A DNA stretch of 63,418 nt, the filler included. It is 7 parts of 7 records of this genome, joined end to end, with 100 filler letters (N's around TTAATTAATTAA, not from the genome) between each part and the next. Parts side by side here need not be neighbours in the genome. Positions count along the whole stretch, not along the records: positions 40,907 to 51,110 come from DRR723986_16059; 6 more parts are not named here. The stretch is one strand, 5' to 3'. The notes under the pieces are model-generated. The model made no database searches, was not told the DNA's origin, and was given only the letters and a program-made list of their open reading frames with translations. Position numbers and translations under genes: made by a program. This document shows, piece after piece, positions 1,216 to 58,378 of this stretch (position 1 is its first letter; the number at the start of each line of letters is the position of its first letter).

Positions 1216-4200
1216 TTACAGGATCAGATCCGACGCATCGACCGTGGGCGCGCCAAGGAGATCGACCGAGAAGTCGGACCCGCCGTCGCCGTCCACATCG
1301 ATGTAAAGCCGCCCGATCGCCCCGTTGTAGCGCACCTGCCCGGCAGAGCCGGTGAAGCCCGACACGAAGGACAGCGTGCCCGCGAAACCGGACAGGTCGA
1401 TGGTGTCGACGCCATGGGTGAAGTCGGTGATGACGTCGCGGCCCGTTCCATGCGGGCTGTCCGACACCCCGTCGAAGACGAAGACATCCGCGCCCGCGCC
1501 ACCGCTCAGCAGATCCGATCCGCTGTCGCCGGACAGGGTGTCGTCCCCGTTTCCGCCATACAGCGTATCGTCATCCGAGCCGCCGTTCAGCGCGTCCTCG
1601 CCGTCGTTGCCCACCAGCAGGTCGTCGTCGGCGCTGCCGTAGAGCACATCGTCGTCGTCGCCGCCGCGCAGGGTGTCGTTGCCCTCGTCGCCCCGCATCG
1701 TGTCATCGCCGGACCCGCCGTCCATGAGTTCGTTTCCGGTGCCGCCCAGCAGCGTGTCGTTGCCGGCCTCGCCGCTCATGGTGTCGTGGTTGCCGCCGCC
1801 CTCGAGCAGGTCGTCGTCGTTGCCGCCCGACATCTCGTCCGCGCCGGAACCGCCCAGCAGCGTGTCATCGCCAGAGCCGCCAAAGAGCCGGTCGTCGCCG
1901 GAGCCGCCGTCAAGAAGATCCGCGCCGTCGTTGCCGGAAAGCAGATCCTCGTCCTCGCCGCCATACAGGCGATCGTTGCCGTTGCCGCCGCGCAGGGTGT
2001 CGTCATGCTCGCGCCCGGCGATGACGTCGTGACCGTTGCCGCCGGACATGTAGTCGTGCCCGGTCTCTCCGACCATCGTGTCGTTGCCGTCGTTGCCGTA
2101 CATCTGGTCGTGGTTGCCGCCGCCGTTCATCCGGTCGTGGCCGCCGCCGCCCGCCACGGTATCCGCGCCGGAACCGCCCTCGAGACTGTCGTTGCCGTCC
2201 CCGCCGCTGAGCGTGTCCGAGCCCGCGCCGCCGTAGAGGTCGTCGGCCCCCTCTTCGCCGCGCAGGGTGTCGTCGCCGTTGTTGCCGTACAGCGTGTCGT
2301 TGCCGAGCCCGCCCCGGAGCGAGTCGTCGTCCTCGCCGCCGGCCATCAGGTCCCGTCCGGCACCGCCGTCCATGGTGTCGTCGCCGTCGCGCCCGACCAG
2401 AAGGTTGTCGCCCTCGTTTCCGTAAAGCGCGTTGGCGCCCGCGTCGCCGCGCGCCTTGGCGTCGACGCTGCCCGTCAGCCGGATCGCCTCGAAGGTCCCG
2501 AGGAAGTTGCTGCGCAGGTTCGTCAGATCCGTCGTCACGCGGGTGACGATGGTGTCGAAGTCCGTCCCGGCGCCGCTGCGTTCGTCCACGATATCGCGGG
2601 AATCGACGTGATAGACGTCGTTGCCGGTGCCGCCCTGCAGGATGTCGGCTCCGGACCCGCCGATCAGCGTGTCGTCGCCGCTTTCGCCGAAGAGGCTGTC
2701 ATCGCCGCTGCCGCCATCCAGCAGGTCGTTCCCGCGCCCGCCGGTGACGAGGTCGACATCGCCCTCTCCGAAAAGCCGGTCGTGGCCGCCGTTGCCGTTC
2801 AACGTATCCATGCCGGCGCCGCCGATCAGGGTGTCGTCGCCGATCTCGATGCTCTCGTTCGGCACGTCGAGCGTGACGCTGACCTCGGTGCGGTCATCGT
2901 CGGAGGCAACGAGCGTCACCTCGATGCTGTCGCCCGCGCTGGTCGAGAGACCGTCGATGACCGCATCGTACCGCAGGCCAAGCGGCGTGGAGGCAAAGGC
3001 ATCGCCGTCCACGGTCCGGACAAGGGTGCCGTTGACGCGGATCTCCAGCCGGTCCACCTCGGCCGTCTCGACCGGGGACCCCGCCAGACCGGCGGTGAGC
3101 GTCGACGGCTCGAGCACCCGGACGGCGCTGTCATTGTCGATGCCATCGTCCAGCAGGTCCAGCCTGTCGATGTCGGCCCCGGCGCCAAGGCCGAACGCCT
3201 TGATCGTGGCGTTCAAACCGGATGGATTGGTCAGGAACGCCGTCTCGTCCGAAAAGATCTTGTTGTCAGGGTCGGGCTCTCCGTCAGAGATGAAATAGAC
3301 CACGTTCTGCCCCGCCCCCATGCCACCAAGGGCCGAGATCGCCCCCTGCAGGGCGGCTTCGAAGTTGGTGGCCGAGCGCGTGGTCATGCCCGCAAGCGCG
3401 GCATCGACCTCTCCGGTGACGGTGCCGCTGTAGATCTGGAAGGCGGTGTCCGCGAAACTGACGATGGCCAGATCGGACGACGAGAAGCCTCCGGCGATCA
3501 GGCTGTCGTTCAGGGACTGGAACGCGGCCACGGTGCCGTCGATCAACTGGTTGGCCGAGCCGTTGCCGTTGAGGTCGGGGACCGTCTCGGTGCCCACGAA
3601 CTCCCAGTCCATCGAATAGGAATTGTCGATGACGTAGACGATGTTGTAATCGTCGCCGATCGCCGGAACGCGGTTGATGAGGCCCGAGATCTCGATGCTG
3701 GACCCATCCCCGCTTTCGGGCAGGGTCAGCGTCAGCGCCAGATCCTGTCCGGTTTCGGCGACGGTGACCAGATTGAAGGCGGATTGCGTGACATCCCCGG
3801 CCCCGTCGCCGTCGATGCTGTCATTGCCGTCGCCGCCGGTCACGAGGTCGTCGCCCTCGCCCGCGTCGATGCTGTCATCCCCGCCGTTCGCGATGATGAC
3901 GTCGTCGCCCTCCAGCCCGAGGACCTGCTCGCCGCGGTCGGTGGTGACGAGGATGTCGCCCCCCGCCGTGCCCGAGATCGGCCCGGTGTCGGCGTTCAGG
4001 TGAAAGACCGAGATGGCGTCCGAGTTGAAGGCGCTCACGACCAGCAGGGCCTGACCGTCGATCTCGACCGTGTCCATGTAGGCCGCGCGATCCAGCAGGA
4101 TGTCCGCGCCTTCGCTGTGGAACCGGTCGTCGATCAGCGTCAGGCTGCCATCGCCGCCGACAGAGAAGAGCGACAGCGCGTCGTCGTCGATCCCGGTCGC

Positions 4201-9822: not shown

Positions 9823-9922
9823 NNNNNNNNNNNNNNNNNNNNNNNNNNNNNNNNNNNNNNNNNNNNTTAATTAATTAANNNNNNNNNNNNNNNNNNNNNN
9901 NNNNNNNNNNNNNNNNNNNNNN
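9823..9922. other. Artificial contig linker 1
   Basis: N-run + TTAATTAATTAA (stops in all six frames) + N-run, 100 nt. Confidence 0.98.
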
Positions 9923-15074: not shown

Positions 15075-15174
15075 NNNNNNNNNNNNNNNNNNNNNNNNNN
15101 NNNNNNNNNNNNNNNNNNTTAATTAATTAANNNNNNNNNNNNNNNNNNNNNNNNNNNNNNNNNNNNNNNNNNNN
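15075..15174. other. Artificial contig linker 2
   Basis: Same N/TTAATTAATTAA/N structure. Confidence 0.98.
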
Positions 15175-30365: not shown

Positions 30366-30465
30366 NNNNNNNNNNNNNNNNNNNNNNNNNNNNNNNNNNN
30401 NNNNNNNNNTTAATTAATTAANNNNNNNNNNNNNNNNNNNNNNNNNNNNNNNNNNNNNNNNNNNN
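30366..30465. other. Artificial contig linker 3
   Basis: Same linker structure. Confidence 0.98.
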
Positions 30466-40493: not shown

Positions 40494-40806
40494 TCACCCG
40501 ATGGCGGCGGCCTTAACGTCGTCGTCGATATAGGGCACGTATTGGGCAAAGTTCTCGGCGAACATGCCCACCAGCTTTTGGGCCTGCGCATCATATCCCG
40601 CCTTGTCGTCCCATGTCTTGCGCGGGTCGAGCAGAAGCTCGGGCACGCCCTCGACGCTCACCGGCACCTCGAAGCCGAAGTTCGGGTCCTTGCGGAACTC
40701 TGCATCCGCCAGCGAGCCGTTCAGGGCGGCGTGCAGCAGCGCGCGGGTCGCCTTGATCGGCATCCGCGAGCCGGTCCCGTAGGCGCCGCCGGTCCAGCCG
40801 GTGTTG
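40494..40806 (-). CDS. pckA: Phosphoenolpyruvate carboxykinase (ATP), C-terminal part
   Basis: [24 protein letters not shown]...LLDPRKTW. Confidence 0.95.
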
Positions 40807-40906
40807 NNNNNNNNNNNNNNNNNNNNNNNNNNNNNNNNNNNNNNNNNNNNTTAATTAATTAANNNNNNNNNNNNNNNNNNNNNNNNNNNNNNNNNNNNNN
40901 NNNNNN
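40807..40906. other. Artificial contig linker 4
   Basis: Same linker structure. Confidence 0.98.
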
Positions 40907-41052
40907 TTTGATAGCATTTATTGCAGCAAAGGAGACTGACGATGGGACTGAAACGGACGGACGAATTCCGCCAAGATGGAGTGCGGATTGCACTGACCAG
41001 CAGGCTGACTCCTAAGCAGGTTGCTGATGATCTTGGCGTCGGGATGTCGACG
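40907..41052 (+). mobile_element. IS3-family remnant (5' part of orfA only)
   Basis: RBS AAGGAG and ATG at 40942 give MGLKRTDEFRQDGVRIALTSRLTPKQVADDLGVGMST, an IS3 OrfA-type HTH. The similarity stops abruptly at about 41052. Confidence 0.75.
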
Positions 41053-41990
41053 TGCCGTTTGAACTGCGTTCAGCCTGCTTGCAGCCAGTGACGAGTACAG
41101 ATGACAAACATTGCCACTTTTGCAAAGAAGCGCTTCCCAGAGATGAAAAAGATACCAAACTGTTCGAACTCCGAATGGATATCGACGGTCAGATAGTCGA
41201 GAGTAAACGACTGCAGGGAAAGCGAGTAGCAAAACTGGAAGCGGCTAAGAAATCTGCCACAGACCTAAAGTCGCGTATGACACGGGCAATGAAACAGTTT
41301 GATGAGCTTCGCAACGCTTCTGTAGATGGGAGAACCGCGCTGGTTTCTGAAAAGAGCCGAGAACTTGGGAAAATTGACGCTCGACTTGATGAGTTGAACA
41401 AGTTTTCGGACCTTAGAAAACAAATCAATGGTCTCAAAGAGGCGAAAGAGCTAGCCTCAGCTGAGATAACAAAACTTCGGAATGCTATTGAAGCGCTTGA
41501 GCTTGCCCGCGAAACGCGACGACGCGTAGTAAAGACAGAAATCGTCTCAGATACTAAACGGGTTCTGGAAAAGGATCTCAAGGAGCATAATGACTTCGAA
41601 GCGTTGGACAATTTCGACTTCAGCTTCGAAGACGATTGGTTCGCGATCAATGGCGATCCCAATATCACCACCAGCGCTAGTGGCATGGTCGTGGTGAAGA
41701 ACAGCCTTTTTCTAGGTATGTTGCTAGCTTCGTTGAAAGACCATCAAATGATGTATCCGCGTTTTCTTTTGTTGGACAACGTAGAAGACAAAGGAATGGT
41801 AGGCGACCGTGTTCGCAACTTCCAAAAAGCGATAGCTGACCTGATGGATCAAGAAAGCGCGCCGCATCAAATTATTATGACGACTTCGACACTAAACCCA
41901 GCTTTGGCCCGTGAAGACTATATCGTCGGCCCTTCGTACTCCAAACAAAACAGAACTCTAAAAATTCAAGGTGGTGCGTTGGGTGCATGA
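41052..41990 (+). pseudogene. C-terminal half of an SMC/Rad50-like ABC ATPase (ABC three-component / Lamassu LmuB-like), 5'-truncated
   Basis: Zn-hook-like (R)SAC...CHFC, long coiled coil, signature SASGMVVVKNS, Walker B FLLLDNVEDKGM and QIIMTTS. No Walker A. Confidence 0.7.
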
Positions 41991-42090
41991 TAATTGGAGC
42001 CTCGACACCCAATTGGCACCCAGTCGCGACGGCCACAAACTACTAGCACACTAGTACTTACATCAACCACTTGAATCTATTTGGTAAAAA

Positions 42091-42108
42091 TGGTGCCCAG
42101 GGGCGGAA
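42091..42108 (-). repeat. att core: displaced copy of a tRNA 3' end
   Basis: TGGTGCCCAGGGGCGGAA matches TGGTGCCCGGGGGCGGAA at 51084-51101 in 17 of 18 positions. Confidence 0.9.
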
Positions 42109-42214
42109 CCATTACCCACCCTTATCGAAACCCGTACGCTATGTCAAATATAAGCAATATCAATTAGTTACGAAATCAATCATTCGGAAAACCTCCACCG
42201 ATTGATCTTTTTCT

Positions 42215-42234
42215 GCCCCCTCAATTGCCCCCTC
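42215..42234 (+). repeat. Putative integrase arm-type site, left copy
   Basis: GCCCCCTCAATTGCCCCCTC (GCCCCCTC twice), identical to 51031-51050. Confidence 0.8.
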
Positions 42235-42259
42235 CGCACTCGCCTGATACAAGGCGGTC

Positions 42260-43636
42260 ATGCCTATCAATTTGCTTTCAGATGCACGATGCCGAACGGC
42301 GAAAAAAGGAGAACATGGCGACGGCGGTGGCCTGTATCTCGATGTTAAAGAGTCTGGCACGAAAAGCTGGAAATTCCGCTGGTCCTCTCCCCCCGGTGAC
42401 ACGGCAAGACCCAAAATGGGTCTAGGATCATACCCCACCATTTCACTTGCCGAAGCTCGCATTGAAGCCCAGCGCTGCCGCAAACTGGTCGCACAGGGCA
42501 TTGACCCACGTGGCGAGCGCAACAAGGTGCTACGTCCGGAGACCTTCCGGGAAGCCACCAACACCTATTTCGAATTGAAGAGAGAGGGTTTGAAAGGTGG
42601 TGGCAGCGCAGGTCGGTGGATGAGCCCGATCAATCAGCACGTGTTGCCGGAGCTTGGTGACAAACCGGTTGCGCAGATGACTCTCAACGATCTGGTCAAG
42701 GTGTTGAAGCCAATCTGGCAGACAGACACAGGCCGGAAAACGCTCAACAGGGTAGACCAGATTCTGACGAATGCGAAAGCCCGCAATCCGGAAGTGCTAC
42801 CGGGGGTTTCCAATATCTCTAAGAGCACCCAAGCCTTGCTGCCCCACGTAAAACGAAAAAACACGCACCACCCTTCGTTACCGTGGAGTCAAATGCCAAA
42901 GCTCTGGATGGCATTAGACAACTCTGTCACCAATCTGGGCTTCAAATTCTATCTCCTTAACCTTCCGCGTACCGCCAACGTAACCAAAATGGTTTGGGCG
43001 GAAGTCGACTGGGAAGAGCGGATTTGGGATATTCCCCCCGAACGCATGAAGACGGATGTTGGCTTCTCTGCCCCACTATCAAGGCAATCGGCTGAAATCC
43101 TGCGAATTGCGCGCGCCCGATACAAGTCTGAGACAGATTTTGTGTTTCCATCTGCGACCGCTTGGAAGAAAGGTGTCATCTCAGAAAACACATGGGGAAA
43201 GTGGCTTAAAGCCCATGATTGGAAAGCTGAAGATGGTCGGCATGCTGTACCACACGGCTTTCGCGCCACTTTTGGTACATGGTGTGGCGACAACCAAATC
43301 TGCGACAAAGAAATGCAGAAGCGGTGCATTCAACATGTGGTCGAAAACCCCGAAGACGCCGCTTATCTAAGGTCAAAGCTCCTGCCGGAGCGACTGGAAG
43401 TTATGCAAAAATGGGCCTATTTCGTAACCAGTTTGGAACGCGAACAAAGTGAAGCAAGGCGTCGACACGTTGAACATCAACAGTCACTGGACCATCCTGT
43501 GGAAGCTGCCGGTAAGGACGGGACCTCAAGAACGCGCCGTGAAGTCGAAGAGTGGCTTCGCCCGGATTCTGAGGAGGAAGCGGAGGCATATGCGATGCGT
43601 ACAGGGCTCCACCCAAACCGAAAGAACCGCAAATAG
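42260..43636 (+). CDS. P4-like tyrosine integrase with N-terminal arm-binding domain
   Basis: Arm domain HGDGGGLYLDV...MGLGSYPTISLAEAR; catalytic R (LPRT), K (RMKT), HGFR, QH and Y (AAYL). Confidence 0.93.
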   Translation: MPINLLSDARCRTAKKGEHGDGGGLYLDVKESGTKSWKFRWSSPPGDTARPKMGLGSYPTISLAEARIEAQRCRKLVAQGIDPRGERNKVLRPETFREATNTYFELKREGLKGGGSAGRWMSPINQHVLPELGDKPVAQMTLNDLVKVLKPIWQTDTGRKTLNRVDQILTNAKARNPEVLPGVSNISKSTQALLPHVKRKNTHHPSLPWSQMPKLWMALDNSVTNLGFKFYLLNLPRTANVTKMVWAEVDWEERIWDIPPERMKTDVGFSAPLSRQSAEILRIARARYKSETDFVFPSATAWKKGVISENTWGKWLKAHDWKAEDGRHAVPHGFRATFGTWCGDNQICDKEMQKRCIQHVVENPEDAAYLRSKLLPERLEVMQKWAYFVTSLEREQSEARRRHVEHQQSLDHPVEAAGKDGTSRTRREVEEWLRPDSEEEAEAYAMRTGLHPNRKNRK

Positions 43637-43844
43637 AAAAACGGGGCGAATAGCACCTCTGTGAGAAGCCCTGACGCACTTTGCAGTGCGCCGTATCAAA
43701 TTCGCCGATGGCACCTAAGATGTCGAAGGAGTTTTGACACCCAGAGGACTACCCATCCCCGACGAATTCCAAATGTAAACGACACTAAAAATGACTGAAA
43801 TTGGCGAATATCAGCTAAGGCTTTGAATGAAAACGGAAAAGCGC

Positions 43845-44157
43845 CTGAGTCACCCAGAGTCACCAGCCTAAACCCTTATTTTTAAGGGGTTTGGCGATTT
43901 AGAGTGACTCAGTGACTCACGATCCCATACTCAGCTCTAGAAATCTGTTATATATTATATAACTAGAGTGAATACTTTTACATTGCTTACGCACATAATG
44001 GATGGGTGCGTGTCCGCCTAAAAAGTATTCACTCGTGTCGCACATATATATAACCGATTCATAGGCACGGGGATGCCGACTTGAATCACCTGAATCACCA
44101 AAATGCCTCAAACCCCTTATTTATATAGCCAATCGCCGGTGACTCAGAGTGACTCAG
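43845..44157. other. Dyad-symmetric iteron array with AT-rich core (putative replication origin)
   Basis: Four tandem pairs of TGA(G/A)TCAC / GTGACTCA at 43846-43864, 43904-43919, 44082-44099 and 44139-44156, mirrored around ~44000. AT palindrome at 43947-43963. The structure is seen directly; the function is inferred. Confidence 0.6.
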
Positions 44158-45101
44158 CGTCTCTCGGAAACCTAAACTTCTGATTACACGAGTGAATACT
44201 TTTGTGGGTTCATACTCAAGTTCCTCGATATGGACGTTTTCTCGCCCGGATCAGGTTAAAAGGATGCACTCGTGTAGTAGACATTACACATGTGTACCGC
44301 GTTAGCGGTGAGTGCATCTTTTTTGATGATTTGGTCATTTATCGTGACATTTCGGAAAAATTGGACCCAAGTTAAAGGGTTTTCTGACAGGTAAGGGCCT
44401 TCCCTTTTTTCACTAGCCTGAAAAACATCCGCACATGGCGGAGGTGGCGTAGCGGAAACCTAGTGGTCGGAACTCCCCGCTGAAGCACCGCTGACAAGCT
44501 TTGCGCAATGCGCGAATGGTCGCCGCGCAGGCATCGATGATGCCTCTGTCAGAAAACTGATATTGTTAAGGTGGGCTAACCAAAAATGCATACACTTTAC
44601 GTGAAAGGGCGGGGCGTCAATTATCCTGTAAACAATTGGAATTAAACCATAATCCTACCTCCCTCAAAACCAAGATCGACTACTTGTCAAGTTGAACCAA
44701 GTGTTAACATCCCTCCTGCAGGTAGCTGCTGCAAGGGTATGAGCCCCCGGGGCGGTATCCCCCTTTGGGTCCCCCCCTTTGCTTGCAGCATACGAATTGA
44801 GGCTTTGACCGGTGCCTCGCAACGGCGGAATGGCAATGGCTTGCAAGCATTCACCTCTTCCATATGGGGTTGGGGCAGTTTGTGACCGCAACTGATCATC
44901 TGATGCGTCGCGGTGCCGATGACGTCTCACATGGGACGTCCCTTGTGATCTTCACGGACTGCTTCACTTACCGTCTCAAAACTCCATCCCCTACGATCCC
45001 AACGGTAATTCTTGCAGGTTTTGAATTCGTGCGCGACACGAGTCCTCGGCTGCCGTGGACTGATTGTTTCCAAAACCACTATCGCTTTGCCGCTTAGATA
45101 G

Positions 45102-45127
45102 TGTTATTTTTCTTGAGAAAAATAACA
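45102..45127. promoter_or_regulatory. 26-bp 12-2-12 inverted repeat, putative serine recombinase binding/crossover site
   Basis: TGTTATTTTTCT-TG-AGAAAAATAACA with perfect arms, 34 bp upstream of the recombinase ATG. Confidence 0.6.
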
Positions 45128-45161
45128 GCTAACCACGCCAACTAACCGGTTTGTATAAGTA

Positions 45162-45851
45162 ATGTCAGCAAAGAAAATTCCAGCCTTCGCCTATCTCCGC
45201 ACCTCAAGCGCTCAAAACGTTGGGCCTGACCGAGACTCTGATAAACGCCAACGGGCGGCAGTCAAAGCTTACGCTGACGCGAACGGCTATGAGATCGTGG
45301 GTGAATATTATGACGCCGCCGTGTCTGGCACTGACCTAATCGACGCCAGACCGGGCATGATGGAACTTCTGGACGCTGTATCGAGCAAAGGTACGCAGAC
45401 GATTCTTGTGGAATCGCCAGATCGTTTTGCGCGGGATGCGGTTGTACAGGAACTTGGACACCGCATGTTGAAAGAACGCAGCGTTGACTTGATACCGACA
45501 ACCGCTCCCGATTACTTTACAGTTGATACTGCTACCACTGAGCTTGTTCGCACCATTCTTGGAGCCGTGAATGCTTTTGACAGGCGTCAGACAGTGGAAA
45601 AGCTCAGGGCAGCGCGTGACCGCCGCTCAGAAACGCTAGGACGCCGTGTAGAGGGCCGCAAGCCCGTCGCTGACGCGACCATACAAGAAGCGAAACGGCT
45701 CTACCGGCGCAGCCCGAAGACAGGTAATAGACGCAGCCTGCGCCAGATATCGAACGAGCTAGCAGCACTTGGCCACACTCTGCCAAGCGGGAAAGTTTTC
45801 AATCCAAATAGCGTACGCCAGATGCTTGAGCGCGCTGGGGTATATGCGTGA
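45162..45851 (+). CDS. Small serine recombinase (resolvase/invertase family)
   Basis: AYLRTSS (catalytic Ser), DAAVSG...RPG, VESPDRFARD and a C-terminal HTH (RSLRQISNELA). Confidence 0.92.
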   Translation: MSAKKIPAFAYLRTSSAQNVGPDRDSDKRQRAAVKAYADANGYEIVGEYYDAAVSGTDLIDARPGMMELLDAVSSKGTQTILVESPDRFARDAVVQELGHRMLKERSVDLIPTTAPDYFTVDTATTELVRTILGAVNAFDRRQTVEKLRAARDRRSETLGRRVEGRKPVADATIQEAKRLYRRSPKTGNRRSLRQISNELAALGHTLPSGKVFNPNSVRQMLERAGVYA

Positions 45852-46178
45852 TCAGCACCAAGCCTATCGGGATGCACAGAGGCACGTTGCACCTGCTATG
45901 TTAGTCCTCAGTTGTCGCGAAATGCCCTAAGAAGACTTGGAGAAAAGTCTGGGACCTGAGAGGGGTAAGCTTCCACTTGCAGCGGTAGGTGCCGTTCAGA
46001 GGGCGCTTGGTTGCCTTTCACGCCTCAATCACGCTTGTTCGGCATCAGAAAGTTGATGCGGATCAACGCCAAGTTGCACCTGTACTGTTTCAATCGCAAG
46101 GCATACCTTTGCCGTGACCCGCCCTTCGGGCGGATTTTGGAAATCGTAAGGGTACACATACCTCAGAGGGTGATTTTG

Positions 46179-46856
46179 ATGGACGAATTTGAACAAGAAC
46201 CATTTGTAGACGCAGTTTTGCAGGAAAACCCAGAGCCAAGGTGCCCAGTGCTTTTGTTGTTGGATACTTCATATTCAATGAACGGCGCGCCAATTTCAGA
46301 ATTGAACGAAGGACTGGCAACGCTTCGCGAAGAGTTGTTGTCAGATTCACTGGCAGCAAAACGTGTCGAACTAGCGATGGTGACTTTTGGGCCGGTAGAG
46401 ACCCGCAGTGAGTTCGCAACAGTCGATAACTTTTATCCAGAAACCTTGGAAGTTGGCGGGGCAACTCCAATGGGGGAGGCAATCCTTTCCGGCTTGGAAA
46501 TGCTTCGTGCGAGAAAAGACCACATCCGTTCGAATGGCCTCAAGATTTTCCGCCCTTGGGTCTTTCTGATTACCGACGGCGCGCCAACGGACAGTTGGGA
46601 CGAAGCCAAACGCCGGGTGCATGAAGGCGAAGAACGCAAAGAGTTCATGTTCTACACGGTAGGCGTGGAACAGGCGGATATGGGTGTGCTTGGGCAGATC
46701 GCGACCCGCCAACCCCTTAAACTCAAAGGGCTGGCCTTCAAGGAACTGTTTCAATGGCTATCCAGTTCGCTTAGCGCCGTTTCTCAATCAAACCCCGGCG
46801 ATTCCGTTCCTCTTGCAAACCCCACCGCCCCCGATGGTTGGGCTGTAGCGGAATAG
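46179..46856 (+). CDS. terY: TerY-type vWA protein (YegL-like)
   Basis: [18 protein letters not shown] (MIDAS), [23 protein letters not shown] and [12 protein letters not shown] motifs. Confidence 0.9.
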
Positions 46857-46860
46857 CGAC

Positions 46861-47607
46861 ATGGCATGGCGTTGGGCGGCTGCGTCCGAGATTGGCACGT
46901 CTCACATTCGCAATGGCGTTAGGCTTCAAGATGCCTACGCTGTAAGGGCTATAGGGGATGAGTGCATTTTTGCTATCGTTTCGGATGGTGCGGGTAGCGC
47001 TGAATTCAGCGCATTTGGCGCATGGCTTGTATGTCGCACTTTAACCGTTCGATTTCGCGATTGGCTCTACGCTAATTCGGATTTTCCGGATGACGAAGTA
47101 ATTGCCGAATGGGTTGATGAAATTCGCGACCGGATAGCCGCGATAGCTGACCGCAGGGAAACCACTCCCCGTCAATTTGCGTCTACATTGGCGGCAGTTG
47201 TTTCAACGCCAGACGAAACACTGACCATGCACGTAGGAGATAGCGCTGTTGTTGGCCGCCGAAATGAAGAATGGGACGTTCTTTGCTGGCCCGAAAATGG
47301 CGAATACGCATCAACAACGTACTTTGTGACTGATGACCCAGAACCCCGCCTCAATATTGCGCGGTACTCGCGCGAGTATGACGCATTCGCCTTGTTCTCA
47401 GATGGTGTTGGCGATCTGGCGTTATCCCATTCTGAACAGACTGCATCCCCTCAATTCTTCACGCCTATGCTACGCCCTGTGGACAACACACAGAGTGTTG
47501 GGCGATTGCCTGAGTTGTCAGCTAAGCTGCGCACCTATCTTGCCGGTCCTGCGATTTGTGAACGAACCGATGACGACAAGACGCTCATCCTTATTTCTGG
47601 GGGCTGA
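46861..47607 (+). CDS. PP2C-like phosphatase of the TerY-P triad (YegK-like)
   Basis: GTSH...QDA, VSDGAGSA, HVGDSAVV, GEYASTTYF, FSDG and ERTDDDKTL motifs. Confidence 0.9.
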   Translation: MAWRWAAASEIGTSHIRNGVRLQDAYAVRAIGDECIFAIVSDGAGSAEFSAFGAWLVCRTLTVRFRDWLYANSDFPDDEVIAEWVDEIRDRIAAIADRRETTPRQFASTLAAVVSTPDETLTMHVGDSAVVGRRNEEWDVLCWPENGEYASTTYFVTDDPEPRLNIARYSREYDAFALFSDGVGDLALSHSEQTASPQFFTPMLRPVDNTQSVGRLPELSAKLRTYLAGPAICERTDDDKTLILISGG

Positions 47608-47609
47608 AC

Positions 47610-49775
47610 GTGAAGGATATCGTCATCGGAAAGGACCGCGTTTCCGTTGCGGAACTGATTGGCAAGGGTGGCGAAGGTGAAGTCTATGCAATCAAGGGGC
47701 GTTCTGGGCAGGCGGTAAAAATCTATAACGCCAACCTACGTTCAAAACGGGAAGACAAAGTGCGTGCGATGGTGGGCGAAGGTCTTGCCGTCAAGACTGA
47801 GCTTATTGCCTATCCCGGCGAAGTCGCAACCGACCGGCGCGGCAACTTTCTTGGTTTCGTCATGCGGCTTGTGTCGGGCTATCGCCCTCTGCATGAGCTT
47901 TACAGCCCCAAGTCGCGGATGCGTCATTTTCCCAAGGCAGACTATCGTTTTTTGATCCATGCCGCTTTGAACGTCGCGCGTGCCGTTGGAAAGGTGCACC
48001 AGACGGGATGTGTCATCGGTGATTTGAACCATTCGGGTATCCTTGTTGCGCCGGATGCAACCGTTGCTTTGATTGATGCAGACAGCTTTCAGTTCCGCCT
48101 TAACGGCACGTCCTACCCTTGTGTTGTAGGGGTGCCAGATTTCACGCCACCTGAGCTTCACGGCAAGAACCTCGCAACAGTAGAACGCACGATAGCTCAT
48201 GACAATTTCGGCTTAGCCGTCGCGATCTTCCATTTGCTCTTCATGGGCAAGCACCCATACGCCGGAATTCGTAAAGGCCCGGAAACCTCAATGGGCGAAG
48301 ATATTGCTCAAAACCGGTTCGCATATTCCTTGCAGCGAAGTGCGCAAACACAATCCAAGCCACCACCCGGCGCACTGACGCTAGACCTGTTTCCAGAAGT
48401 TATGTCCAAGACGTTCGAAGCTGCTTTCGGACTAACACCGGGCGCGCGTCCTAGCGCGCTCGAGTGGATACACGCCTTGTCAAAGCTGGAAAGCTCACTA
48501 AGCCACTGTACGAAGGTCAAGACGCACTACTACCCAAGTGCCGCCAAGGGCTGCGTCTGGTGCAAGCTGACAGCTAAGAGCGGTCTGGATATGTTCCCGG
48601 ACCTGTCGGCGATAACGCCCAACATTCCGACCGATGCGCGAGGCACAGAACAGGCCATTCGTGAGATAATGGCTTTTCGCTTCCCAGTAGTTGGTGATTT
48701 GCTTCCAACGGTCACGGTTCGCGGTGCCAGTTCTGCGCTGAACGAAGCCAAGAGCGGCAAGCGTGGGCGCTCGTTTTTGGGCTTGCTCATGATGGGCGGC
48801 GCGGTCGCCGGGTTCATTTTCGCCGCGCCGGTGTTCTACATCTGGATTGGACTGGCAATCTGGGGGTGGTCCACATTCTCAGACCGCGAAGTCTCGTCCA
48901 GCCCATTTTTGCAAGCTTTCAGAGAATCCGATGAACGGATACAGCGCGAGTTAAATGCGTTTGTGCAGCGCAATGGCCTGACTGAGGTGGTTAAGGTTCG
49001 CGGCGATCTAGATGCCACCATTGCAGCCTACAAAGGCCATGACGACGCACTTGCCCGTGAGGTGATGATACTCAAATCCAACCGGGAGTCGCGTCAGCGA
49101 CAGGCATTTCTTGATCGGTTCTCAGTACGGCGCGCGAACATCTCCGGTATTGGTCAAGCCAAGACTGCGACGTTGATTTCCTTCGGGATCGAAACCGCAG
49201 GCGATGTGAGCCGTTCCGCCGTGATGCAGGTCCCCGGATTTGGCGAAGTGATGACCGGAAAGTTGGTGGCGTGGCGGCGTCGGCACGAGACCCGGTTCAA
49301 ATATGACAGGACGCCCACCGCCCAAGACGTTGCCGACGAAAGGGCGTTGCGTGGGCGCTTTGCGGCTGAGAAAGCCAAGCTGGAATCCACGATCCGCAAC
49401 GGGTTGGGTACCCTTCGCAATGCGCGCGCGAAGCTCGATTCCTTACCTGCCCGCGCGAAAAACGATAGGGCGCTTTCGGATGCCCTTGCGACACGTGCAC
49501 AAGCTGAACGGGACTTGAAAGAATTGGGTGCGTCTGTTCCAGCCTCTTCCGTCGCCTTGACGGTGACGCCACCGTCGCGAGCTGCACCACAATCACCCAG
49601 AGTCCGAGTTGCTACCACCAAAGCGCATGGGGCAACCAATTTATCTGGTGCGCCAAGCTGCCCACGCTGTGGATCACACATGATACGGAGAACGGCGAGG
49701 CGCGGGCGGAATAGAGGGAACCAGTTCTGGGGATGCTCGCGCTACCCTAGTTGCCGTGGAACCAGAAACATTTAA
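47610..49775 (+). CDS. Ser/Thr kinase of the TerY-P triad (YegI-like) with TM, HhH and C-terminal topoisomerase-type Zn ribbon
   Basis: GKGGEGEVY, AVKIY, IGDLN, LIDADS and FTPPEL; CVWC; two TM segments; HhH motifs ISGIGQAK and VPGFGE; CPRCGSHM...FWGCSRYPSC. Confidence 0.9.
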   Translation: MKDIVIGKDRVSVAELIGKGGEGEVYAIKGRSGQAVKIYNANLRSKREDKVRAMVGEGLAVKTELIAYPGEVATDRRGNFLGFVMRLVSGYRPLHELYSPKSRMRHFPKADYRFLIHAALNVARAVGKVHQTGCVIGDLNHSGILVAPDATVALIDADSFQFRLNGTSYPCVVGVPDFTPPELHGKNLATVERTIAHDNFGLAVAIFHLLFMGKHPYAGIRKGPETSMGEDIAQNRFAYSLQRSAQTQSKPPPGALTLDLFPEVMSKTFEAAFGLTPGARPSALEWIHALSKLESSLSHCTKVKTHYYPSAAKGCVWCKLTAKSGLDMFPDLSAITPNIPTDARGTEQAIREIMAFRFPVVGDLLPTVTVRGASSALNEAKSGKRGRSFLGLLMMGGAVAGFIFAAPVFYIWIGLAIWGWSTFSDREVSSSPFLQAFRESDERIQRELNAFVQRNGLTEVVKVRGDLDATIAAYKGHDDALAREVMILKSNRESRQRQAFLDRFSVRRANISGIGQAKTATLISFGIETAGDVSRSAVMQVPGFGEVMTGKLVAWRRRHETRFKYDRTPTAQDVADERALRGRFAAEKAKLESTIRNGLGTLRNARAKLDSLPARAKNDRALSDALATRAQAERDLKELGASVPASSVALTVTPPSRAAPQSPRVRVATTKAHGATNLSGAPSCPRCGSHMIRRTARRGRNRGNQFWGCSRYPSCRGTRNI

Positions 49776-49799
49776 CTCATAATCAGACGAGTTCAAAAG

Positions 49800-50960
49800 A
49801 TGGCTTTGAGATTTCGAAAGACCTTTACCCTCTTTCCGGGCGTTCGCCTCAACGTCGGCAAGTCTGGTATCAGCACCAGCATTGGAACACACGGGGCGAC
49901 GGTAAACGTTAGCGGTCGCGGTGTACGCGCAACCGTTGGAATTCCCGGAAGTGGATTGTCGTACACAACTCCGAACGTACCGTATGGCTCGTCAGGCTCG
50001 CAGAGCATGCCAGTAGGCAATGCCCGGTACGAGGAAGAGCACAGACTACAAAATGAAACGCCGCCAGTCTATATCCCTAGGGAAGGCATGCGTGAAATCG
50101 GTAGCGCTTCCGTTAAGGTTCTAACTAGCCCAAATCTGCAACCACTCAAGGACATGTTCGAGACGGCAACTGTACAGCAACGCCAGATCGAGAGAGACCT
50201 GTCCGACGCCGAGATCGAACTGACTCAGAAACAATCAGAATTGCTCAGAAAATCGGGCAGTATTTTTCGCTGGTTTTATCGGAAGAGGATCGCCGAACTT
50301 GAAGAAAGTGTTCCTGTGGTCAATGCAGAGGTTGAGCGATTGCAGGCGTGGAAAAAGGACACCCACATAAGTGTTGAATTCGAGTCCAACGATAAGGCGC
50401 AAAAGGCCTACGCGGCGCTTGTTCGTGCATTCGAGGGCCTTCGAGGCTGTAGAAAAGTCTGGGACATTACGAGTGACCGGGATACGAACCGTTTAGTAGA
50501 ACGGACTGAGGCAACCAGAGTCATTGACCGACATCCTGCAAAGCTTGAATTCTCCCAATCCGAGCTAATCCACTTCGATGGAAGAGCGATGCGTTTCGAG
50601 AACGTCAACGGGGAAGACATATTGCTCTACCCGGGCATTGCAGTGATGCCTCGACCAGATGGGGCGTTTGCTCTGATCGACCTGCGAGACCTAGAAGTTT
50701 CCGCCGAGCTCACCGGCTTCGTAGAGGACGATGCAGTGCCACCTGACGCTAAGGTGGTGGCGCAAACTTGGGCAAAAACCAACAAAGACGGTTCGCCCGA
50801 CCGTAGATTCAAGGACAACTATCAAATTCCAGTTTGTGAGTATGGTCGACTGGTACTCCGATCCGGCAAGGGGATTGCTGAGGAATACCAAGTATCAAAA
50901 GGCGATGCCGCTATTGCTTTCGCCGCTTCGCTAAAAAACTATCAAAACGCCCTAGACTGA
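49800..50960 (+). CDS. DUF4236-domain protein
   Basis: N-terminus RFRKTFTLFPGVRLNVGKSGISTSIG...GIPGSGLSY; coiled coil; C-terminal NKDGSPDRRFKDNYQIP. Confidence 0.85.
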   Translation: MALRFRKTFTLFPGVRLNVGKSGISTSIGTHGATVNVSGRGVRATVGIPGSGLSYTTPNVPYGSSGSQSMPVGNARYEEEHRLQNETPPVYIPREGMREIGSASVKVLTSPNLQPLKDMFETATVQQRQIERDLSDAEIELTQKQSELLRKSGSIFRWFYRKRIAELEESVPVVNAEVERLQAWKKDTHISVEFESNDKAQKAYAALVRAFEGLRGCRKVWDITSDRDTNRLVERTEATRVIDRHPAKLEFSQSELIHFDGRAMRFENVNGEDILLYPGIAVMPRPDGAFALIDLRDLEVSAELTGFVEDDAVPPDAKVVAQTWAKTNKDGSPDRRFKDNYQIPVCEYGRLVLRSGKGIAEEYQVSKGDAAIAFAASLKNYQNALD

Positions 50961-51030
50961 GTCTTTTTGAAGTCACCCGGTTTGAAACATTTTGTAGTAG
51001 GCGGAATTGCAGGGCCATCGAATGCGATTC

Positions 51031-51050
51031 GCCCCCTCAATTGCCCCCTC
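51031..51050 (+). repeat. Putative integrase arm-type site, right copy
   Basis: Identical to 42215-42234. Confidence 0.8.
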
Positions 51051-51083
51051 TGGACCGAAAAAATTTAATGTTTTCAGTAGAAG

Positions 51084-51110
51084 TGGTGCCCGGGGGCGGA
51101 ATCGAACCAC
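51084..51110 (-). tRNA. tRNA 3' portion (T-arm, acceptor strand, CCA), probably tRNA-Phe; rest cut by linker
   Basis: Minus strand GTGGTTCGATTCCGCCCCCGGGCACCA has a GTTCGA T-loop and CCA end. The anticodon is not visible; Phe is assigned from resemblance to alphaproteobacterial tRNA-Phe 3' ends. Confidence 0.8.
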
Positions 51111-51210
51111 NNNNNNNNNNNNNNNNNNNNNNNNNNNNNNNNNNNNNNNNNNNNTTAATTAATTAANNNNNNNNNNNNNNNNNNNNNNNNNNNNNNNNNN
51201 NNNNNNNNNN
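51111..51210. other. Artificial contig linker 5
   Basis: Same linker structure. Confidence 0.98.
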
Positions 51211-58278: not shown

Positions 58279-58378
58279 NNNNNNNNNNNNNNNNNNNNNN
58301 NNNNNNNNNNNNNNNNNNNNNNTTAATTAATTAANNNNNNNNNNNNNNNNNNNNNNNNNNNNNNNNNNNNNNNNNNNN
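58279..58378. other. Artificial contig linker 6
   Basis: Same linker structure. Confidence 0.98.

Follow-up and report, generated by a model that had tools for sequence, protein, structure and literature searches.

A candidate origin-type iteron array lacking a replication gene in a small tRNA-associated island of a marine bacterium

Background

The alpha protein of P4 binds the octamers of crr. This region lies 45 bp after the alpha gene, beside attP/int, and consists of a direct repeat of 120 bp present twice, each copy having five octamers of the TGTTCACC type. Origins of the SaPI/PICI type lie 3' of the rep helicase gene and have iterons on either side of an AT-rich stretch. To our knowledge, all phage satellites described so far, including the 'minimalist' PICMIs, encode their own primase or Rep. 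P4 alpha has a C-terminal winged-helix domain (PMC2777425). PICMIs, the smallest marine satellites described, encode alpA and a primase required for replication (PMC10803314). In the PER (phage-encoded resistance) system, lactococci are protected by a phage origin that has been cloned and is provided in trans (PMC8965321).

In this study, we describe a 313-bp palindromic array of short repeats in a small island from a marine bacterium, and compare it with these systems. Judged by its sequence, the array is probably of the origin type (ori/crr-like) and would be bound by a primase-helicase initiator from a phage or satellite, whose gene the island has lost or never encoded.

Results

The island, its ends and its genes

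The window, that is the whole stretch of DNA analysed (63 kb), consists of contigs joined by N44-TTAATTAATTAA-N44 linkers, and the array lies in the piece 40907-51110. This piece holds an island of ~9 kb beside a tRNA gene, and both true island ends, which an earlier note on this DNA had held to be visible, fall within it, defined by a duplicated tRNA 3' end and by P4-like pairs of arm sites. The features of the island outside the array are as follows.

42093..42112, no strand: left att core, recognised against the tRNA at the right as a diverged copy of its 3' end
42214..42234, plus strand: tandem integrase arm-type sites (TGCCCCCTC, 12 bp apart), left island end
42260..43636, plus strand: P4-type tyrosine integrase, 458 aa (Pfam Arm-DNA-bind_3, Phage_int_M, Phage_integrase)
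45097..45122, no strand: 26-bp palindrome, candidate recombinase binding site, 40 bp upstream of the recombinase gene
45162..45851, plus strand: small serine recombinase, 229 aa (Pfam Resolvase; PHROGs integrase/DNA invertase families)
46011..49775, plus strand: by Pfam, a vWA protein, a PP2C phosphatase and a Ser/Thr kinase whose C-terminus is a zinc ribbon of the Top1 type
49800..50960, plus strand: DUF4236 protein, 386 aa, a phage-family cargo gene (Pfam; phrog_17982, E 3e-138)
51030..51050, plus strand: tandem arm-type sites, right island end
51084..51110, minus strand: tRNA gene 3' end, running off the contig (right att core)

ARAGORN reports no complete tRNA gene, since the one at 51084..51110 is truncated. 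The GC content of the 10-kb piece is 0.50 against 0.60-0.69 in its window neighbours, thus the piece may be mis-binned.

The integrase is 29% identical to P4 Int (E 2e-35) and has relatives at 47-82% identity, among them named Rhodobacterales proteins. Sequence homology among these relatives begins at the left arm-type pair, and 42078-42126 is also conserved beside them. A scan of a genome collection with the integrase gave at least one locus, a distant one, and a viral scan with the integrase alignment gave no match. The integrase relatives carry other cargo, thus modules seem to be shuffled in this island family. One marine metagenome run contains 5% of the sampled words, with no RNA run listed, and the contigs of that run on 42200-46200 comprise integrase relatives and two short near-identical pieces, none of them over the array. 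As a candidate for further integrase arm sites the array was rejected: it lies 1.7 kb from the left core, the true TGCCCCCTC pairs at 42214 and 51030 match the P4 arm core, and it is absent from all eight integrase relatives (55-82% identity) for which downstream DNA is present.

Relatives of the serine recombinase reach 64-93% identity, many of them from Rhodobacterales, and its plasmid homologues (46-53% identity) stand in unrelated contexts. Several of the 64-93% relatives belong to named genomes (Vannielia, Silicimonas algicola, Jannaschia sp. M317, Shimia thalassica and Roseovarius sp. THAF27), and two contigs, to judge by the lengths 5,720 and 7,109 common to both sets of relatives, seem to carry an integrase relative together with a recombinase relative. 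Cultured phage records contain no close homologue, and the recombinase is absent from all 10 virus records searched. Palindromes of the TGTT...AACA type also precede homologous recombinase genes by 10-17 bp in the viral loci L255 and L261, and similar ones, judged by eye, occur in L260 and L251.

The earlier note had taken the cargo for defence genes, and its domains agree. TerY-P triads are defined by a vWA protein, a PP2C phosphatase and a Ser/Thr kinase in one operon (PMC7699616), which is the domain set of the island cargo; PADLOC matched no TerY-P model on it and returned only weak PD-T4-6, MkoA and PDC-M21C matches, thus membership in TerY-P is assigned by domains only. Homologues of the DUF4236 protein (53-56% identity) were found in 35 proviral loci, none of which has the array (0/35) or other island genes (0/35).

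Architecture of the array

The array occupies a 1.5-kb gene-free gap with the P4-type integrase on one side and the small serine recombinase on the other. The features of this gap are listed in order.

43847..43864, minus strand: octamer pair 1, GAGTCACC twice (starts 43847 and 43857, 10 bp apart)
43904..43919, plus strand: octamer pair 2, GTGACTCA twice (starts 43904 and 43912, 8 bp apart)
43947..43963, no strand: AT-only palindromic tract (GTTATATAT...), mirror partner at 44042-44054; candidate unwinding element
43966..44034, no strand: central hairpin with perfect 14-nt arms (GAGTGAATACTTTT) and a 41-nt spacer holding a nested ACGCAC/GTGCGT stem
44082..44099, minus strand: octamer pair 3, TGAATCACC twice (starts 44082 and 44091, 9 bp apart)
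44139..44156, plus strand: octamer pair 4, GTGACTCA twice (starts 44139 and 44149, 10 bp apart)
44186..44323, no single strand: three extra copies of the 14-18-mer, at 44186-44203 (plus), 44258-44276 (minus) and 44310-44323 (plus)
44393..44412, plus strand: terminator-like hairpin followed by a T-run, a consensus match only, the number found being that expected by chance

The imperfect palindrome spans 313 bp (43845-44157) around a centre at ~44001 and is bounded by 23-nt terminal inverted repeats that are 87% complementary. Its eight GA(G/A)TCAC octamers form four tandem pairs, and it also contains two (TA)n tracts as well as an inverted repeat of 14 nt without mismatches. The octamers are spaced 8-10 bp, the four pairs alternate in orientation with both orientations present, and six of the eight copies are still exact. 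Within each half, 39 bp separate the paired octamer sets, and an AAACCC(C)TTA element lies between them. Every motif reported in the earlier note lies at the position given there, and the common mirror axis that it placed near 44000 is borne out: GTTATATA (43947) is mirrored by TATATAAC (ending at 44054), the 14-mer at 43966 has its exact complement at 44021-44034, and the mirrored elements share the axis 44000-44001 to within 1-2 bp. Alignment of arm to arm matched 110 of 162 columns with 12 gap columns, and its score of 112 is far above that of shuffles (3.5 +/- 9.4, n=200, maximum 28.5). A 240-bp tandem duplication was tried as an alternative description (160/277 columns, 68 gaps) and rejected, the palindrome describing the array better.

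Two short AT-only tracts (43947-43963 and 44042-44054) are present, the 30-bp AT profile reaching 0.83 in one bin only, and outside these tracts the AT-richness of the array is only moderate. Neither a DnaA box with up to one mismatch nor a CtrA box was found in the array. To the right of the palindrome, the three further copies of the 14-18-mer, which the earlier note did not list, alternate in orientation and can form two overlapping alternative hairpins.

The octamers are concentrated in the array. All five exact matches of GTGACTCA in the 63-kb window fall here (shuffle mean 1.46; five reached in 1/100 shuffles), and 9 of the 14 window matches of GTGA[CA]T[CA] fall in 43840-44330, where 0.04-0.10 are expected; no second octamer cluster was found in the island. 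Between the arms, octamer columns were kept at 29/32 compared with 67/116 of the other columns (Fisher p = 3e-4), and the 14-mer was kept at 14/14. These figures bear on whether the array is a mobile palindrome resembling a MITE, or an inverted duplication that arose by chance, in either case devoid of any binding function. Such an element would suit the 23-nt terminal inverted repeats, the length of 313 bp and the single end-to-end hairpin, but its flanks show no target-site duplication, no second copy exists in the 63-kb window, the inner motif has three further copies beyond the palindrome, conservation is motif-specific and plasmid and phage records gave no match, all of which makes it improbable.

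As single-stranded DNA, 43835-44335 has a predicted fold of -86.6 kcal/mol, against -50.5 +/- 4.3 for shuffles (z = -8.5). This strong fold, together with the terminator-like hairpin at 44393-44412, is what a structured non-coding RNA gene might display. We consider such a gene highly improbable: Rfam at E <= 1 returned no family, save one sub-threshold animal microRNA match elsewhere, a scan of 43500-45300 gave no promoter-like site and two terminator-like sites, which equals chance, a DNA palindrome folds equally on either strand, and the tandem octamers suggest protein binding.

It is also conceivable that the array is a substrate of the serine recombinase, whose gene lies 1 kb downstream, either as an invertible or resolvable segment or as res accessory sites. 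Words resembling half-sites, GTTATWTWT, are common to the array and to the palindrome preceding the gene, and 4 of the 5 occurrences in the window fall in the array-containing gap, where 0.3 are expected. Dimer sites of resolvases and invertases consist of inverted half-sites of 12-13 bp and measure 25-34 bp in all. Direct tandem octamers 8-10 bp apart do not fit this format, and the conserved palindrome right before the gene, in the island as in the viral homologues, differs in sequence and is devoid of octamers; a role as recombinase substrate is thus quite improbable, more so than a mobile repeat.

Search for a replication gene

No primase, helicase, Rep or relaxase was found on the island ORFs with Pfam, PHROGs and PADLOC, and in tblastn with 21 replication-type proteins including P4 alpha the lowest E on the piece was 0.22, with no match at E <= 0.01 anywhere in the window, in agreement with the earlier note, which had described the island as devoid of these genes. 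The eroded primase that it put forward as an alternative left no remnant that Pfam or tblastn could find: within 43637-45161, the 12 of 20 ORFs of at least 30 aa that were compared with Pfam gave no credible match to a decayed primase or other gene. In tblastn with two further sets of queries, namely 21 chosen replication, terminase and P4 proteins and the 1,836 stop-to-stop ORFs of 16 viral loci, only the N-terminus of the recombinase was matched. An AlpA/Vis-type regulator was likewise not found, P4 orf88 and cI giving no tblastn match and the small island ORFs no Pfam match, and terminase, Par and repressor genes were not found in the island.

At the DNA level, 43640-45160 matched no plasmid or phage record in blastn, and a family of rep-less islands with such arrays, which the earlier note had considered, did not emerge, plasmid and phage records holding no homologous DNA and the integrase relatives lacking the array. 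Sensitive blastn against P4, three cultured phages and G006, a complete 42.8-kb phage of an uncultured marine family, yielded a single 29-nt match at chance level.

Arrays of similar build in phages and satellites

In its build, the array resembles the iteron arrays that adjoin the primase/helicase genes of P4 and of PICI-like elements, as the earlier note had suggested, and also those of marine phages. In all 11 of the replicative primase/helicase lineages examined, the array overlaps the stop codon of the gene or follows it within ~300 bp; these lineages include P4, Salicola phage CGphi29, Roseobacter phages CRP-701 and CRP-406, G006 with its 7 fragments, and the loci L251, L260, L261, L264, L256/257 and L147/L162/L275.

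In the G006 family, the 3' end of the primase-helicase gene carries copies of GTGACTCA spaced 11 bp, then an inverted partner, and further on a second, 18-nt inverted repeat based on GAGTGA. In G006, this 18-nt repeat contains CGAGTGAA, the core of the second motif of the window, which was found once in 225 kb of other loci. The nearest cultured relatives of the G006 primase-helicase are Salicola, Idiomarinaceae and Alteromonas phages (48-54% identity), which infect Gammaproteobacteria, and the relatives of the island integrase and recombinase belong to Rhodobacterales, thus a direct helper relation seems doubtful. Only short motifs are common to the island and G006, P4 and the cultured phages, thus the shared 8-mer could be due to convergence or chance.

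A wider sample consisted of 116 viral loci selected solely by a tandem GTGACTCA pair, with 50 loci selected by an unrelated 15-mer as control. The pair lies inside or beside a replication-initiator or primase/helicase gene in 34 of the 116 loci, the replication genes concerned belonging to four unrelated protein families, and no control locus (0/50) showed an association with a replication gene.

Not every array with this octamer adjoins a replication gene, and it is possible in principle that the island array serves another class of protein, as a pac/cos signal for the small terminase of a helper, as a centromere for partition or as an operator array whose repressor is supplied from elsewhere. 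Satellites that carry the cos or pac site of their helper exist. In L107/L268, the same octamer forms an array with tandem and inverted copies 250-420 bp upstream of the gene for a small terminase of the Sf6 type. L157 has three tandem octamer copies, flanked by genes on the integrase side and by an HTH_3 repressor, and the arrays of L251, L260 and L261 are also upstream of a DUF5681 ORF and terminase genes. On the other hand, in the latter three loci the array is fixed relative to the primase-helicase stop (3-16 bp after it) and its distance to the DUF5681 ORF varies by ~0.3-1 kb, arrays with this octamer are mostly tied to replication genes, and the island has no terminase, Par or repressor gene. 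We therefore give the other protein classes, taken together, only a small chance.

Of the 16 viral loci with a recombinase homologue, 6 (from 5 lineages) show the order replication gene, iteron array, 0-2 ORFs, recombinase, and the order in the island is integrase, array, no ORF, recombinase. The island thus has the phage module order minus its first gene, which would be expected if a replicon module (replication gene, ori and resolvase) had been captured and its replication gene since deleted, leaving the array as an inert relic. The shuffling of modules in this island family speaks for the same course of events, as does the stretch of ~840 bp between array and recombinase, which holds no ORF with a match to any family, whereas the phages have ORFs there. 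Against an inert relic, the octamers and the 14-mer have been kept between the arms with spacers down to 58%, six of the eight octamers remain exact, and the recombinase gene is intact, as is the palindrome that precedes it. A relic is at odds with an array still active in trans, not with its origin-type nature, and we consider it fairly unlikely.

Discussion

An origin-type array seems to be the most fitting account of this locus. Overall, we regard continued activity in trans as possible, at clearly less than even chances, with amplification or hitch-hiking unlikely when taken singly and a decoy function slightly more so; an inert relic would be less probable than activity in trans as a whole. 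The lost-replicon relic and the initiator decoy each fit the data as well as helper-driven amplification does.

For the array to be active in trans, a hexameric primase-helicase would bind the eight octamers through DNA-binding domains of the winged-helix or a similar type, and the two inverted sets in each arm might direct head-to-head loading of two helicase rings, with melting of the neighbouring (TA)n tracts and of the central hairpin. The array would function only in the presence of an infecting phage or co-resident element, because the island has no initiator gene, and that phage or element would have to supply an initiator of matching specificity. The putative outcome is either that the island is replicated or that the phage initiator is titrated.

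More specifically, we propose, as a reading less likely than not, a natural origin-only island, which would have kept the origin belonging to a family of phages able to infect its host. The primase-helicase of an invader would then either fire this origin or be soaked up by thirteen putative sites. If the origin is fired, the island would be copied and the dose of its TerY-P-like and other cargo would rise, perhaps feeding packaging as well, only during infection. If the initiator is soaked up, the island would be a natural chromosomal equivalent of two known effects, the engineered resistance of PER and iteron incompatibility in plasmids.

An island that keeps the cis site alone would, if true, lower the known minimum for hitch-hiking on phage replication. 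Non-coding 'origin mimicry' would then join the natural anti-phage devices, invisible to gene-based defence finders, and the matching of iterons would offer a simple way of linking orphan islands to their phages. Even as a relic, the locus documents the uptake of a replicon module (origin and resolvase) into a P4-integrase defence island.

Comparison with known systems

One close parallel is P4. Both have repeat units in which tandem pairs of an octamer ~9-10 bp apart are combined with inverted copies across an AT-rich spacer of ~35-40 bp, and both octamers share the core TCACC (TGTTCACC in P4, GAGTCACC/GAATCACC in the island). A P4-type integrase adjoins the array in each case, its arm sites have a TGCCCCC core and form tandem pairs in P4 as in the island, and the island is integrated at a tRNA end. 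However, P4 has the alpha gene beside crr and a second site (ori) 4.5 kb away, neither of which the island has, its 120-bp direct repeats differ from the 313-bp palindrome, and the integrases are only 29% identical.

The marine phage arrays (G006, CGphi29, CRP-701 and CRP-406) likewise consist of short tandem and inverted repeats at roughly helical spacing, but these putative origins overlap or abut the initiator gene of the phage itself and have no extended similarity to the island array. Among elements resembling SaPI/PICI, the low-GC loci L147/L162/L275 have a VapE-like helicase gene directly followed by an AT-rich stretch with GTGACTC/GAGTCAC iterons on both sides, which is the layout that the earlier note described for such satellites; PICIs differ from the island in having their own pri-rep, regulators and packaging genes, all of which it lacks. 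PICMIs are also small integrase-bearing islands of marine bacteria with anti-phage functions (PMC10803314), but they carry alpA and a primase, neither of which is present here.

A full-text literature search on a related topic, made with another aim, returned no natural chromosomal island with a PER-like role. PER itself is an engineered plasmid system of Gram-positive dairy bacteria and differs from the island in this respect, but it too places a phage origin without an initiator gene in the host, where it interferes with the phage, and thus provides a precedent for reading the array as a decoy.

Structure of the array

The array is an imperfect palindrome at 43845-44157, centred near 44001, and all the motif positions reported in an earlier note, which had proposed an orphan origin-like array, were recovered. 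Its two arms can be aligned over 162 columns, of which 110 match and only 12 contain gaps (score 112, against 3.5 +/- 9.4 in 200 shuffles), and a reading as a ~240-bp tandem duplication fitted less well (160 of 277 columns, 68 gaps). Going inwards, the first element of each arm is a tandem octamer pair. A spacer of 39 bp with an AAACCC(C)TTA element separates it from a second tandem pair of opposite orientation, after which come the AT-only tract GTTATATAT and half of the perfect 14-nt inverted repeat GAGTGAATACTTTT. Three extra copies of the GAGTGAATACTTTT-type 14-18-mer, overlooked in the earlier note, follow in alternating orientation at 44186-44203, 44258-44276 and 44310-44323. All five exact copies of GTGACTCA in the window lie inside the array region, as do 9 of the 14 window matches to GTGA[CA]T[CA], where 0.04-0.10 would be expected, so that motif clustering is far above chance. 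Arm-to-arm identity is 29/32 in octamer columns, 14/14 in the 14-mer and 67/116 in other columns (Fisher p = 3e-4); what is preserved between the arms is the motifs, not the spacers. Beside this pattern a MITE-like repeat, which could also present as a palindrome, seems improbable. The predicted single-strand fold of the region (-86.6 kcal/mol, z = -8.5) is of a kind that an RNA might give, the array matches no Rfam family, and an RNA is the least credible reading of all.

No DnaA box or CtrA box was found in the array. Contigs from the single matching sequencing run, a marine metagenome, gave no coverage of it. Every array octamer (43847-44155) contains GANTC, the sequence methylated by CcrM in Alphaproteobacteria; a stretch of 491 bp has nine of these sites where about one would be expected. 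Protein binding to the array could therefore depend on methylation state.

The island and its surroundings

The window is not one chromosome stretch: it consists of seven contigs, so pieces lying side by side in it are not genomic neighbours. The contigs are joined by six N44-TTAATTAATTAA-N44 linkers:

9823-9922, linker
15075-15174, linker
30366-30465, linker
40807-40906, linker
51111-51210, linker
58279-58378, linker

GC content of the 10-kb piece with the array (40907-51110) is ~0.50 versus 0.60-0.69 in neighbouring pieces, and this piece may be mis-binned. The preceding contig ends with the final 42 residues of a PEP carboxykinase (40494-40763), a gene truncated by the break between contigs. 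Features of the island are as follows:

42093-42112, diverged copy of the tRNA 3' end, left end
42214-42234, tandem pair of arm-type sites TGCCCCCTC (42214/42226, 12 bp apart), just inside the left end
42260-43636, P4-type integrase with an Arm-DNA-bind_3 domain
45097-45122, 26-bp palindrome, 40 bp before the recombinase gene
45162-45851, serine recombinase, 229 aa
49800-50960, DUF4236 protein (phrog_17982 over its whole length, E 3e-138)
51030-51050, tandem pair of TGCCCCCTC sites (51030/51042, 12 bp apart), just inside the right end
51084-51110, minus strand, tRNA gene 3' end, at the right contig end

The two tRNA-end copies and the paired TGCCCCCTC sites bear out the earlier claim that both island ends are visible; the latter account for the integrase arm sites. 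Left of the island (40942-41990), the beginning of what was judged by eye to be an insertion-sequence transposase precedes a 312-aa ORF that PADLOC aligns with Lamassu LmuB over its C-terminal half alone (E 3e-12); this ORF is a broken defence gene at the same tRNA-side hotspot.

Gene order in the island is integrase, a 1.5-kb gap with the array, serine recombinase, a vWA/PP2C/Ser-Thr-kinase triad and the DUF4236 protein. Of the 20 gap ORFs of at least 30 aa, 12 were compared with Pfam, and none has a credible family match. The earlier note had seen no primase, helicase, Rep or relaxase in the island, and a check of both the piece and the window likewise detected no decayed gene of primase, helicase, initiator, small-terminase-like or AlpA-like type. 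The triad fits the TerY-P definition at domain level, with no TerY-P match in PADLOC; its kinase (47610-49775) has a C4 zinc ribbon of the topoisomerase I type at the C-terminus (Pfam Zn_ribbon_Top1, residues 683-721). DUF4236 homologues with 53-56% identity occur in 35 proviral contigs (L276-L310) that carry no other island genes; in 11 of them the homologue lies right at the predicted provirus boundary. The gene has the look of a moron or candidate defence gene that stands alone.

The array is not part of the integrase module, as the octamers are absent in 8/8 relatives with downstream DNA among nine integrase relatives (55-88% identity). Similarity to metagenomic integrase relatives starts exactly at the TGCCCCCTC arm sites, and these relatives carry cargo different from that of the island. 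The island's recombinase and cargo genes are absent from all 81 loci examined. In L010 (2989-3915), a HamA (Hachiman) gene lies directly downstream of an integrase relative with 55% identity. Integrases of this family seem to mobilise small defence islands whose cargo can be exchanged.

Nor does the array fit a site for the serine recombinase; the separate palindrome at 45097-45122 is a better candidate. Palindromes of 26-32 bp of the TGTT...AACA type lie 10-40 bp before serine recombinase genes both in the island and in viral contigs L255, L261 and, judged by eye, L260 and L251, and probably serve the recombinase as its operator or crossover site. As a reading of the array, recombinase substrate is slightly less probable still than a MITE-like repeat.

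Comparable arrays in phages

Homologues of the island recombinase (39-52% identity) were found in sixteen viral contigs, six of which, from five lineages (L251, L260, L261, L264, L256/257), have an upstream primase/helicase gene of Prim-Pol/AAA_25, PrimPol-PriCT2-VapE or RepB-primase plus DUF5906 type. In all six, tandem and inverted groups of 7-11-bp repeats lie between this gene and the recombinase, starting 3-16 bp past the stop codon in L251, L260 and L261. The island order of integrase, array, empty 840 bp and recombinase is thus the phage order minus the replication gene. The remaining ten contigs lack a primase/helicase gene in the vicinity, and in L253, which is among them, two tyrosine integrases immediately precede the recombinase.

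In uncultured phages (L251, L260, L261, L258, L265, L255, L256/257) the recombinase homologue sits at the junction of replication and packaging modules, in the order origin-like array, DUF5681 ORF (L251, L260, L261), recombinase, HNH gene (L251 only) and large ORF. This last matches Terminase_6N in L251, L260 and L261, is a homologue of these in L258, and without family match in L255, L256/257 and L265. The position is unusual for a resolvase-type gene.

A scan of viral contigs for the tandem GTGACTCA pair alone gave at least 116 loci, and among the 116 listed the pair lies in or beside a replication gene in 34, representing four protein families rather than 34 independent events: P4-alpha-like primase plus AAA_25-type helicase (8), VapE-like helicase (3), phrog_2447 initiator (4) and DnaD-like initiator or replisome organiser (19). 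None of 50 control loci with an unrelated 15-mer showed such association. With a stricter three-site pattern, eight loci matched across the entire collection. Three sit where a VapE-like helicase gene ends and belong to a single family, and one lies within an initiator gene. Another neighbours a RuvC-like gene, another precedes an Sf6-type small terminase gene, and the last two are coding repeats. The octamer was seen too in one terminase-side and one lysogeny-side context, as a packaging, partition or operator array might show; such an array is unlikely here, if the most plausible of the non-origin alternatives. Across the primase/helicase lineages examined, an array of this layout lies at, or within ~300 bp past, the stop codon in 11/11. 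To our knowledge, only in P4 among these has it been demonstrated experimentally as an origin.

Among the loci compared, the nearest parallel to the island array is the group of eight with P4-alpha-like primase and AAA_25-type helicase. It includes G006, a complete phage of 42.8 kb with direct terminal repeats. In this group the stop of the 672-aa primase-helicase gene falls among three GTGACTC(A) repeats spaced 11 bp apart. Their inverted partner comes 31-42 nt later, and after it an 18-nt inverted repeat that has a 32-nt spacer and is based on GAGTGA. The G006 version of this second repeat includes CGAGTGAA, the core of the second motif of the island array, an 8-mer with one occurrence in 225 kb of other loci. 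Homologous primase-helicases of the cultured phages Salicola CGphi29, Roseobacter CRP-701 and CRP-406 are followed by similarly laid-out arrays, each with a different iteron. The likeness lies in layout and short motifs, with no extended DNA similarity between the island array and the compared phage arrays. Among cultured phages, those with the nearest relatives of the G006 primase-helicase have gammaproteobacterial hosts, whereas relatives of the island come from Rhodobacterales.

Comparison with known systems

We consider the array to be, more likely than not, an initiator-binding array of origin type and of the phage primase-helicase class, present without its initiator. Phage P4 (L267) offers a close comparison. 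Its record runs int, attP, crr, and its integrase shares 29% identity with that of the island (E 2e-35). The attP arm repeats (3942-3965 and 4151-4174) have a TGCCCCC core in common with the TGCCCCCTC sites and form tandem pairs on both core sides, as the island's arm sites are likewise paired. P4 crr, 45 bp from the end of the alpha primase gene, comprises two 120-bp direct repeats with five annotated 'ori type 1' octamers each (TGTTCACC and variants), arranged as a tandem pair 9 bp apart and inverted copies across an AT-rich spacer; the same octamers also occur in ori, and a TCACC core is common to island and P4 octamers. The alpha protein binds the crr and ori octamers. Its C-terminal winged-helix DNA-binding domain is described in part of PMC2777425.

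An array of this type could have three fates. An infecting phage or co-resident element might fire it in trans, leading to amplification or hitch-hiking of the island, in line with the proposal of the earlier note; it might titrate the phage's initiator, a possibility that recalls PER resistance in lactococci from phage origins cloned in trans (an extract of PMC8965321); or it might be what is left, now inert, of an origin-plus-resolvase module captured earlier. A live element is slightly favoured by conservation being specific to the motifs and by the recombinase being intact. PICMIs, the smallest described satellites, retain a primase according to an extract of PMC10803314, so an origin-only island, if live, would be a new variant.
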